Below are positions 1 to 64,000 of a stretch of 64,000 nt of DNA, one piece after another (the first letter of the stretch is position 1; each line of letters opens with the position of its first letter). The stretch spans positions 558,001-622,000 of the forward strand of contig JABVCE010000009.1 of NCBI GenBank assembly GCA_014905635.1. The letters are read 5' to 3'. The DNA comes from Scenedesmus sp. PABB004 (lineage: Eukaryota). Both the position numbers and the translations under genes were made by a program. The notes beneath the pieces are model-generated. The model ran no database searches. It was given only the letters and a program-made list of their open reading frames with translations, and was not told where the DNA came from.

Positions 1-1029
1 AGCACGACAAGGCCTACGCGATGAACCTCTCAGCGCCCTTCATCATGCAGGCGCGCGCCGCGGACCGCCGCGGACCGCCGGGCGCCCGGGCGCAGCGCCG
101 CCAGCCGGCCGGGCTGGGCCGCGAGCGCGCGTTCACGATCACGCCCCCCCCCCCCCCCCCCCCGCCGCCGCCGCCGCCCCGCCGCCGCCGCAGGTCCCGC
201 CGTTCAAGGCGGCGCTGCTCGCGGCGCTGCCGTACGTCGACTTCCTGTTTGGCAACGAGAACGAGGCCGCGACGTTTGCGGAGAGCGAGGGCTGGGAGAC
301 GCGCGACGTCGCCGAGATCGCGCTGCGGGTGCGGCCGGCCGGCCGGCCGGCCGGCCGGCGAGGGGCCGCCGCGCGGCGGCGGCCCCGCGGCGCTGAGGGC
401 TCGCGCGCGCCACCGAGGGCTCGCGCCCGCCTCCCACACGCCACGCGCCCCGTGTCCCTGCCCCCCCCCCCCCCGTCCCCTCCGTCCCCGTGCCCCGCAG
501 ATCTCCCGCATGCCCAAGGCCAACGGCTCGCGCTGCCGCACCGTGGTCATCACGCAGGGCGCCGCGCCGACGGTCGTCGCGGCGGGCGGGCGCGCGACGC
601 TCTTCCCGGTCATTCCCCTGCCCGCCGACAAGCTCGTCGACACCAACGGCGCGGGTGCGGCGCCCGCGGCGACGGGGGCAGGGAATGCACGCGCGGGGGC
701 AGGGAGTGCGCGCGCGGGGGCGGGGACTGCGCGCGCGCGCGGGCAGAGAGTGCGCGCGCGCGGGGGCAGAGAGTGCGCGCGCGCGCGGGCAGAGAGTGCG
801 CGCGCGCGCGGGCAGAGAGTGCGCGCGCGCCGGGCGGACACACAACCTGAGCCCTGGATCCTGAACCGCCGCGCGGCCAGGCGACGCGTTTGTTGGCGGC
901 TTCCTGAGCCAGCTCGTCGCGGGCAAGGCTGTGCCGGAGTGCGTGCGCGCGGGCAACTACGCGGCCAACGTGGTCATCCAGCGCAGCGGCTGCACCTTCC
1001 CCGCGACGCCCGACTTTGTGTGGGCGTGA
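1..1029 (+). CDS. ADK: Adenosine kinase (PfkB family), 3' part; exons ~1-50, 194-328, 501-654, 881-1029
   Basis: Spliced peptide [27 protein letters not shown]..|..[40 protein letters not shown] carries the ADK/PfkB signatures. TGA at 1027-1029. Intron 1 has a GC donor at 51. Confidence 0.95.
690..832. repeat. Intronic minisatellite of ~21-23 bp (GCGCGCGCGCGGGCAGAGAGT-like), ~5-6 copies
   Basis: Tandem copies visible directly in ADK intron 3. Confidence 0.85.
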
Positions 1030-1303
1030 GAGAGAGGGATTGATTTTGTTTCTTTGGGGAGGAGAGAGGCGGGGCGGGGTGCGGGGCGAGAGCTGGGCGG
1101 CGGGCGGCGGCGCTGGCCCGTGCCGGCGCCGCGGCCGGCGGCAGGTGACGTGTCGCTGGTTCCACGCGGGCCGGTCAGCTCGCCAGCTTTGCCTGCTCTT
1201 CCCCACACGCAACCAGGCCAGACGCGGCAGCCAGCCCGCTCACAGGGCCAGCTGCCGCCAGGCCGTGGCCCGCGACTGCAGCGCACACGCGCGGCGCGCG
1301 CGC

Positions 1304-61396: not shown

Positions 61397-61999
61397 GGAG
61401 CGGTGCTGCGCGCAGCCGGCGCGCAGCAAGCGGCGAGCACGCAGCAGCAGCGGCGGGCGGCCCGCGTGCGCTGCTCTGCTCGACTGTTGGCGCTGCTGTC
61501 GTAAGGAGGCAGAGATCACGGTCGGGCGGTGGTGGTGCGCGAGCGGCGGCGGCGGGGCAGTGCGCGGCGCGAGCGAGCGCCGCAGCCAAAAGCAGCGAGC
61601 GAGCGGCGCGCGCTTCAGGGCGCCGCCGCCGTAACCTCCCTGCCCGCCTGGCGCGCGCCACACAGCCCTCGCCGGCTCGCAGCGCTCCACCACCACACCG
61701 CTCGCGCCGAGCGCGCCCGCGCACGCGCCGCCGCTTGGTGCCGCTGCCGCGCGCTGAGGGGCTGCTGCTGCTGCTGCCTGAACAGGGCCCCTGAGCTGTG
61801 CCGGGACGCGCACGGATCGTCCAGTCGCCGCAGAGGCCGGGCCGCGGCAGGGCAGCGCGGGTGGGGGCGCCAACAGCAGCGGCGGCAGCGCACCCGCAAG
61901 CGGGGACGCTGCGGGCGCGGGGCGGCGGCCCTGCCGCTCGCCGCCACGGCTTCGCCTAATCGCCGCCGTCGCACCCGCGACCGCAGCGGGCCCGGCGGC

Positions 62000-64000
62000 A
62001 TGGCGTTGCCGGCGCGGCGCCGGGCGCTGCTGCTGCTGCTGCTGGTCTGCTGCCTCTGCGGCGCGCGGTGCGCGGCGGGCTTCTACCTGCCCGGCGTGGC
62101 GCCTCAGGACTTCAAGAAGGGCGACGCCATCTTCCTGAAGGTCAACAAGGTGCGCCGCGCCGCCTGCAGCTCGCAGCCGCCGCGCGGCGCCAACCGCCCA
62201 ACCCAGCCGCCGCCACGGCGCGCGCAGCTGAGCTCGACCAAGACTCAGCTTCCGTACCAGTACTACTCGCTACCGTACTGCCGGCCGGAGAGGATTGTGC
62301 CGTTTGCGGAGAACCTGGGCGAGGTCCTGCGCGGGGACCGCATCGAGAACAGGCGCGCGCCGCGCCGCGCCGCAGCGGCAGCGGCAGCAGCGGGCCGCGC
62401 GCGACGGGCGGGCGTCAACGCCACTCACGCGCGCCGGCCGCGCCACCGCGCCCGCGCCCTCGTGCCCGTGGCGCAGCCTGTATCAAATCCAGATGCGCGT
62501 GGACGAGCAGTGCAAGGCGCGGCGCGGCCGGACCGGGCGGCGGCGGGCGCGCCGGCGGGCGCCGGCTGGCGGCTGCCGGCGGGCGCCCGCAGCTGCGGCG
62601 GGCGCCGGCGGCACCAGCCCGACCCGGCCGCCCCGCCCCGCGCCGCGCCGCCCGCAGGTGCTGTGCCGCATCGAGTCGCTGAGCGAGGCGCAGGCGGACG
62701 CGTTTGTGGAGAAGATTGACGACGACTACAAGGTCAACATGTGAGAGCCGTGCGGGCGCGGCGGCGTGCGGGCGCGTGCAGGCGTGGGCGCGGGCCAACG
62801 CGTGCGCGGCGGCAGCAGCAGCAGCAGCAGCAGCAGCAGCAGCAGGAGCAGCAGCAGGAGCAGCAGCAGGAGCAGCAGCAGGAGCAGCAGCAGGAGCAGC
62901 GGCAGTGCCGCCCACGCGCCCGCGCGCGCCCCAGGATCCTGGACAACCTGCCCGTCGCGATGGTCAAGCTGGTGGTCAAGGGCGACGCCGGCGGCGCGCG
63001 CAAGGCGTACGAGCGCGGCTGGTACGTCGGCTTCAAGGTGCGCCGCCGGGCGCCGCACCAGCACGCTGCACCCTCCCGCGCCCGCGCCGCGGCGGGCAGG
63101 AGGCGCGGTCGCCTCAACGCGCCGCCGCCGCCGCTCCCCGCCGGCCGCCGGCCGCCAGGCCACGGTTGAGGGCCAGTCTGGCGTCAAGTTCTTCCTGCAC
63201 AACCACCTGCGGTTCAACATCCTCTACAACCGCGACGCAGCGACCGACCTCTCCCGCATCGTGGGCTTTGAGGTGTGCCGCGCGCGCCTGGGCGGCGGCG
63301 CCGGCGCGCCCCGGCTCCGGGGCCCTGCTCTGACGCGGCCCCGCACGCCGCCGCCGCGCGACACAACAAACGCCGCCCGCTGCCAGGTCGAGGCGTTCAG
63401 CGTGAAGCACGGCTACGAGGCGCCGTGGGACCCGCGCGCGCCGGTGCTGACGACGTGCAACGCCAACCGCATGGTCGCGGTGAGCCACAGCCAGCCGCCG
63501 CAGCCGGTCGAGCGCGGCGCGGAGGTGGTCTTCAGCTACGACGTCAAGTTCACGGTGCGGCGGCGCGCAGCTCACGCCGCACGCTGCGCCGCGCCGCGCC
63601 GCGCGGGGCTCAGCGCGCCCGCTCACGCTCACGCTCGCGCTCCCTCCGCCGCCCCCGATTGCGCCCGCGCCGCGCGCGCGCGTGTTCGCCGCGCAGCAAA
63701 GCACGATCCGCTGGGCGTCGCGGTGGGACACGTACCTGCAGATGACGGACGACCAGATCCACTGGTTCAGGTGGGCTTTGTTTCTGTTCAGTGTTGAATC
63801 AAAAATGCGCAGGGGCGGGCCCGCGCACGCGCCGCGGCGGGCGGCGCAGGGCCGCGGCGCGGCGCGACCGCCGAGGGACTCGTGCCGCCGCCGCGCCGCC
63901 GCGCGCCCGCCGCCGCGGCCGCCGCGGCCGCCACAGCATCGTGAACAGCGTCATGATAGTGCTGTTCCTTTCGGGCATGGTCGCGATGATCATGGTGCGC
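62000..64000 (+). CDS. Transmembrane 9 superfamily / endomembrane protein 70, 5' part
   Basis: Signal peptide, then [69 protein letters not shown] and [33 protein letters not shown]. Confidence 0.96.
62811..62902. repeat. (CAG)n / (GAGCAGCAGCAG)n intronic repeat
   Basis: Visible directly in a TM9SF intron. Confidence 0.9.

Follow-up and report, generated by a model that had tools for sequence, protein, structure and literature searches.

Can a splice donor that begins with GC take its place beside GT as a routine signal in a nuclear genome, and on what terms would it be accepted? We asked this of a 64,000-nucleotide stretch of the chlorophycean green alga Scenedesmus sp. PABB004 (contig JABVCE010000009.1, positions 558,001 to 622,000), referred to here as the window, which has a G+C content of 79.5% and holds at least 12 intron-rich eukaryotic genes. 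A preliminary description of this DNA had listed 16 introns with a GC donor, each preceded by exonic AG and followed by GCG, and had put them at roughly 15% of all introns. We found that the GC-AG observation holds, at a frequency well above chance, and we consider it likely that these are ordinary spliceosomal U2-type GC-AG introns, in which a GC-driven change of T to C at donor position +2 is tolerated only where the donor is otherwise optimal.

The sequence at all 16 coordinates, read on the strand concerned, was as described: exonic AG and then GCGCG, or AG/GCGCG, where the slash marks the exon-intron boundary. AGGCGCG occurs in 84 copies on the two strands, compared to about 52 expected from base composition, and AGGTGCG in 39 copies, compared to about 13. 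A motif count alone proves nothing, and what matters is whether the motif coincides with independently defined exon ends; we therefore located the exon ends independently. We used a purpose-built protein-to-genome aligner with affine gaps, all three intron phases, a required AG acceptor and a selectable set of donors, and we dropped junctions in poorly conserved stretches, where the aligner freely inserts spurious GC donors.

Eleven of the 16 GC sites were junctions picked by spliced alignment to homologous proteins. The remaining five were placed by the residue numbering of a NAMPT structure (two sites), by a paralogous RNA recognition motif (RRM; one site), by frame logic (site 51) and by coding potential only (site 5528). 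For fourteen sites, the junction that homologous proteins, the NAMPT structure or the RRM paralog require thus falls on the very same nucleotide, and the conserved frame was restored gap-free across 11 of them with homologs, two with PDB 7yqo_A and one with the RRM paralog. The earlier claim that continuity of conserved motifs requires GC donors at all 16 sites therefore stands for these 14 and, by frame logic, for site 51, whereas site 5528 is only a probable case. All 16 introns begin with GC and end with AG, the acceptor being CAG in every case. The main query for the DUF3754 gene, P0004 (739 amino acids, 95% identical over the query exon), lies on a contig of 2420 nucleotides and is therefore intronless and transcript-like; this ortholog from a relative is colinear across all five GC junctions of the gene.

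Four genes supplied the curated junctions from which we estimated how common GC donors are. The DUF3754 gene contributed 8 GT and 5 GC junctions (22795, 20871, 20510, 20080 and 19552), the RAD54-like gene 15 GT and 3 GC (13819, 13649 and 12520), the ABCG gene 14 GT and 1 GC (59368) and the part of the EMP70 gene that lies in the window 6 GT and 2 GC (62353 and 62517). The total is 54 junctions, 43 GT and 11 GC, giving a GC share of 20% (95% confidence interval, 11-34%). Across the window, the 16 GC donors stand beside an estimated 73-88 GT donors after correction for background and sensitivity, or 15-18% GC, in good agreement with the rough figure given before.

Table 1. GC-AG introns of the window. 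In the text each is named by its donor position, the first coordinate on the plus strand and the second on the minus strand; slashes in peptides mark the junction.
Gene	Position	Strand	Phase	Length (nt)	Support for the junction
Adenosine kinase (PfkB)	51..193	+	0	143	Frame logic; the sole GT in bases 1-193, at 131, is out of phase with the acceptor CAG ending at 193; classifier U 19.4 / D -8.5
TLDc protein, probable intron upstream of the TLDc domain	5528..5632	+		105	Coding-potential classifier, U 18.7 / D -8.6
RAD54-like (SNF2)	12405..12520	-	0		P0029 and P0031 gap-free, ATEKQ/VALGLERM
RAD54-like	13497..13649	-	2		P0026, P0029 and P0031 agree, SYPTF/RQHKAEVY
RAD54-like	13715..13819	-	0		P0026 and P0031, KRAFQ/DFRAFAHGG; P0029 picks the same site, with gaps nearby
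DUF3754	19421..19552	-	0		P0004 and P0017, RTNEQ/GKLAALPM
DUF3754	19932..20080	-	0		P0004, VVSVIME/EMADQQ, identities 10/10 + 9/10; in-frame stop 7 codons past the donor
DUF3754	20261..20510	-	0		P0004 gap-free, MVMIK/AGADINMNIV; nearest in-frame GT (+9) adds 3 codons absent from homologs
DUF3754	20649..20871	-	0		P0004 and P0017, RNINIK/VFGETPMADV, identities 9/10 + 10/10
DUF3754	22432..22795	-	0		P0004 and P0017, FIADVYE/VLRASHY, identities 9/10 + 9/10
Two-RRM, inside RRM1	41113..41231	-	0	119	The gene's own single-exon RRM2 aligns gap-free across YIDQQ/VTEESL; no GT from -25 to +119, so none in the whole intron
NAMPT-type phosphoribosyltransferase	54513..54668	+	0		PDB 7yqo_A gap-free; residue 347 closes the exon (...GAGVIQ) and 348 opens the next (GDGIN); acceptor CAG ends at 54668
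NAMPT-type phosphoribosyltransferase	54788..54928	+	2		PDB 7yqo_A; R387 split AG/.../G, with ...QRVNR and RDTMSFA both reaching residue 387
ABCG half-transporter	59198..59368	-	2		4 of 5 homologs (P0048, P0051, P0052, P0053), LALTPC/RAVKIGNPLEK
EMP70/TM9SF	62353..62476	+	2		8 of 9 homologs, RGDRIEN/SLYQIQM; P0207 identities 10/10 + 11/11; ninth homolog P0195 ends short of the junction
EMP70/TM9SF	62517..62657	+	0		8 of 9 homologs, same junction; P0207 identities 10/10 + 7/10

The GC junctions withstood changes in what the aligner was allowed to use. When all 16 donor dinucleotides were admitted at equal penalty, each curated junction retained by the conservation filter kept its GT or GC site; the filter also let through five junctions with other dinucleotides, all of them backed by one homolog apiece and none taking the place of a curated site. 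When the aligner was restricted to GT donors, scores dropped by 38 to 275 units over eight runs, and in those runs no well-conserved substitute junction appeared at any GC site. The frame-compatible GT alternatives would cost at least 3 conserved codons or add at least 3 codons, and at five of the 16 sites the scanned span held no frame-compatible GT at all.

We also scored candidate donors with a classifier that contrasts a Markov model of codon positions with a model of introns, both trained on verified exons and introns, and that rewards coding signal upstream of a candidate and its absence downstream. Under leave-one-gene-out testing, 90% of the verified donors scored at least 11 (by score alone, not by the full three-part threshold). 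Among the 84 AG/GCGCG sites of the window, 15 were donor-like, compared to 4.8 expected (p = 8e-5); all 15 belong to the 16 listed sites, with no additional ones, and the remaining site, 19552, fell slightly below the threshold. Varying the base at +2 in the same context gave donor-like calls at 20 of 39 sites for T, 15 of 84 for C, 1 of 25 for G and 0 of 13 for A. Where AG did not precede the donor, 6% of the sites with C at +2 were donor-like, which is the background level.

This dependence on context was equally sharp among the homolog-verified junctions. All 11 verified GC donors had AG at positions -2 and -1, compared to 15 of the 43 GT donors (Fisher p = 8e-5), and all 11 had GCG at +3 to +5, compared to 30 of 43. 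Within the full-consensus class AG/GYGCG, T and C at +2 were equally frequent, 11 against 11, and the 32 imperfect donors included no GC donor. At their other positions, the GC donors thus follow the major-type consensus more strictly than the GT donors do. Two details are new and useful: the strict AG/GCGCG rule, and the 1:1 split between T and C among full-consensus donors. They also bear on the earlier view that a strong match to U1 is missing from these donors: this is true only against the textbook GCAAGT, and measured against the local GT consensus, G/GTGCG, the GC donors are the best possible at every other position. The suggestion that splicing here might rely on exonic AG is, by the same counts, borne out.

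U1 pairing at -2, -1, +3 and +5 may make up for a weak donor position. We propose that GC-biased substitution pressure, through mutation bias, biased gene conversion or both, keeps converting T at +2 to C, and that the resulting mismatch would be tolerated only where all other donor contacts are optimal (AG/G-GCG). The pairs at the exon end (A at -2 and G at -1) and those in the intron at +3 and +5 would offset the mismatch, and recognition would proceed through an unchanged U1 and U6. The direction of change is presumed to be from T to C; scans of metagenomes for the genomic DNA of relatives with orthologous introns returned no relative, the peptide patterns of the first scan being ones that span introns.

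The part of this proposal that concerns GC pressure had been offered before as one option, and it gains support from the base composition of the window, from a published link between GC-AG introns and high genomic GC, and from the introns themselves: those with a GC donor have a G+C content of 88.7%, compared to 84.5% for those with a GT donor (p = 0.005; 16 versus 43 introns). Taken as a whole, the earlier interpretation, which named variant U1 or U6, exonic AG and GC pressure, is partly supported.

Several observations weigh against our proposal. The difference in intron GC content is not significant when the comparison is limited to the 11 homolog-verified GC introns (p = 0.096). Site 51 implies a 2-residue insertion relative to adenosine kinase chains. 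Site 5528, which we regard as a probable GC donor, is without homolog support, and its 105-nucleotide intron is in frame and free of stops and could be coding. At 59368, one of the five ABCG homologs, P0049, prefers a GC...AAG pair whose donor lies 10 nucleotides downstream, at 59358. The GT donors carry C at +4 in 32 of 43 cases (A in 8 of 43), and an adapted U1 therefore keeps some standing. Finally, the excision of the GC-AG introns from RNA is predicted from the continuity of the encoded proteins only.

The GTRAG-type donor is the rule in most eukaryotes, and G/GTGCG is unusual beside it; C at +4 does not pair with textbook U1. With such a local consensus, one might suppose that the spliceosome of this alga no longer distinguishes T from C at +2 once exonic AG is in place, U1 or U6 having co-evolved with G-Y-G-C-G, an idea that we hold to be doubtful. 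If it were true, GC donors would be a second, fully competent class rather than tolerated mismatches, and C at +4 would belong to that co-evolution. The corresponding mechanistic explanation, in which the 5' splice-site machinery itself has changed, so that a U1 small nuclear RNA (snRNA), a U1 variant gene, U6 or a U1 protein adapted to G-Y-G-C-G recognizes GC as well as GT, draws on the unusual GTGCG consensus and on the equal frequency of C and T within AG/GYGCG. It is also favored by a suggestion in the literature: for Aureococcus and Micromonas pusilla, Iwata and Gotoh pointed to base modification or to proteins of the U1 small nuclear ribonucleoprotein (snRNP) (PMC3033335). However, the GC donors need AG far more strictly than the GT donors, as expected for a compensated mismatch at +2, and this strict need therefore argues indirectly against U1 pairing with C at that position; moreover, the 5' end of U1 is the canonical 11-mer in three GC-rich algae of the same survey (PMC3033335). 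On balance, we consider adapted machinery unlikely. The window itself holds no snRNA gene by an Rfam search over its full length, which had 0 matches at the gathering score.

A further explanation, which we hold to be very unlikely, is that the GC donors are artefacts, produced by chance AG/GCGCG motifs in DNA of 80% GC or by T-to-C errors in the assembly. The abundance of AGGCGCG, the readiness of the aligner to place spurious GC donors in poorly conserved stretches and the lack of independent support for 5528 are all compatible with this idea. However, other evidence defines junctions at exactly the positions of 14 sites, the controls with G or A at +2 in the same context gave 1 positive in 38, the public model P0026 uses two of the sites, and sixteen errors that all fell on intron position +2 would not be a credible error pattern.

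Introner-like elements occur in Micromonas. The notion that the GC-AG introns form a family of that kind, distinct from the others and of recent spread, with its own GC donor, can draw on the high GC-AG share of Micromonas (PMC3033335) and on a slight excess of GC-GC intron pairs (71 of 521 blastn matches), but it is the least credible of the alternatives: an all-against-all blastn of 59 window introns, a small sample, yielded only matches between low-complexity GC-rich repeats and no shared repeat family, the strongest pairs were GT-GT, and the two kinds of intron are alike in median length (149 nucleotides for 43 GT introns, 149 for the 11 verified GC introns and 142 for all 16) and in acceptor-side pyrimidine content (0.60 for the 16 GC introns and 0.61 for the GT introns).

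The consensus for GC donors in animals and plants is AG/GCAAGT, whereas here it is AG/GCGCG. In other respects, the introns of the window resemble U2-type GC-AG introns in general, with GC...AG ends, ordinary positions and remaining donor positions that fit the GT consensus of the species at least as closely as those of GT donors. They differ in number: GC-AG introns made up 1.3% of about 2.46 million introns from 61 species (Iwata and Gotoh 2011, PMC3033335), or about 1%, compared to about 15-20% here. The same survey linked a high GC-AG share to high genomic GC, its highest-GC genomes being the ones concerned, and gave fractions of 39.6% for Aureococcus anophagefferens, 22.2% for Micromonas pusilla and 7.7% for Chlorella sp. 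(PMC3033335). The window shares with these algae the combination of many GC-AG introns and high GC, at a level close to that of M. pusilla, although the survey drew its percentages from annotated gene sets. The AG rule and the 1:1 split measured here have no counterpart in the sections of the survey drawn on here. U12-type introns are likewise non-GT-AG, or "non-canonical," yet the ATATCC-type 5' signal that marks them (PMC3033335) is absent from the window's GC introns, whose 16 donors all read GCGCG followed by C, G or T; these introns do not belong to the U12 type.

A close parallel is the haptophyte Emiliania huxleyi, in which 56% of 241 curated junctions are GC-AG at a genomic GC of 65%, and in which 13 junctions (9 GC, 3 GT and 1 GA) were verified by reverse transcription-PCR (RT-PCR) and Sanger sequencing (Feldmesser et al. 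2014, PMC4028052). Those authors attributed the shift to genomic GC and found that ab initio predictors that prefer GT mispredict junctions (PMC4028052). Both are GC-rich algal nuclear genomes with canonical AG acceptors. They differ in that Emiliania reaches 56% at 65% GC, compared to about 15-20% at about 79% GC in the window, where GC donors are confined to the AG context, and in that RT-PCR proof exists for the haptophyte, whereas the introns of the chlorophycean are predicted from sequence comparison. The abundance of GC-AG introns here is therefore a further, chlorophycean example of a phenomenon known from GC-rich algae. A literature search requiring both terms found no paper joining GC-AG splicing with Scenedesmus, the top-ranked papers on other names in the Sphaeropleales did not mention GC-AG, and no paper was found that combined "GC-AG introns" with "GC-biased gene conversion."

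The consequences for annotation are visible in the RAD54-like gene. Its spliced translation in the window is 100% identical to the public protein P0026 (1176 residues, labeled rhp54 [Scenedesmus sp. PABB004] at NCBI), which itself uses the GC donor sites 13649 and 13819. At one point, however, P0026 joins donor 12996 to acceptor 12452 on the minus strand, skipping a conserved 128-nucleotide exon (12521-12648, DLSEFHAVFDL...ATEKQ) and reading intron sequence as protein in its place. This exon is present in the Tetradesmus protein P0031 and in P0029, and its donor is the GC site 12520; the misprediction parallels those in Emiliania. For the DUF3754 exon (18000-24000, minus strand), no protein of the same species was found among 25 matches, and for the ABCG open reading frame (ORF; 55800-61000, minus strand) none was found among the best 120 matches listed, in searches limited by word and length. 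This is weak evidence that the public annotation may lack both genes or model them wrongly. A comparative table gives Scenedesmus sp. PABB004 39.8 Mb, 78.5% GC and 7,092 genes, compared to about 13,400-17,900 genes in five relatives (PMC12571836).

The scope of the curated tally was set as follows. Two GT junctions with conservation on one side only were kept, 59015 (4 of 5 homologs) and 63038 (6 of 9). The RAD54-like GT donors 15148 and 14967, whose basis was only the genome's own model P0026, were left out, and the GT donors of the NAMPT-type gene, in which two upstream ORFs had no PDB match, lie outside it. Three junctions supported by a single homolog were also left out: the GC donor 9347 (P0029 only), at which P0026 and P0031 read through instead; the GC donor 60843 (P0052 only), inside an Ala/Pro-rich N-terminus; and the GT donor 62733 (P0207 only), which loses to 62741, the choice of seven other homologs. 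In the variable middle of the DUF3754 gene (21370-21680, minus strand), there are probably one or two more introns whose donors cannot be fixed by homology; a candidate exon there ends in ...KKKAPPAE and is followed by GTGTGG repeats, and the GC junctions that the aligner placed at 21675 and 21486 were rejected as unreliable.

Gene content was defined by Pfam searches of 141 stop-free ORFs, picked by their codon-position GC pattern from ORFs of at least 35 amino acids. The genes recognized in this way encode a PfkB/adenosine kinase, a SNF2/RAD54-like helicase, a methyltransferase, a NAMPT-type phosphoribosyltransferase and an ABCG transporter, together with TLDc, DUF3754, GH79, cNMP-binding, two-RRM, BRCT/BAH and EMP70/TM9SF proteins. 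Exon 2 of the adenosine kinase gene matches PfkB and adenosine kinase structures; its upstream exon, with 16 codons in the window and used as a 20-residue query, had no PDB or Pfam match. The intron between them has a long unbroken run of C and then GCC repeats directly before its acceptor. A plausible next exon after the 5528 intron spans 5633-5724 and ends in AG/GTGCGG, and the exons flanking that site had no Pfam match. In the two-RRM gene, the Pfam RRM_1 match in the exon downstream of 41231 begins at profile position 8. The RAD54-like gene also has very small internal exons on the minus strand, of 18 (12997-13014), 11 (11013-11023) and 32 nucleotides (10201-10232), each flanked by GT-AG introns and backed by three homologs. 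Acceptors other than CAG occur on the same strand, namely AAG after a (CA)n run in the ABCG gene (59852) and TAG in the RAD54-like gene (13015 and 10233).

In genomes of this kind, gene prediction biased toward GT donors will miss exons or get them wrong, and the RAD54-like model P0026 is a case within the window. The clean rule observed here, with C at +2 only together with AG/G-GCG and there at 1:1 with T, makes this genome a natural experiment on the donor strength that a mismatch at +2 demands, and it is relevant to how GC-biased substitution is balanced against selection on splice sites.

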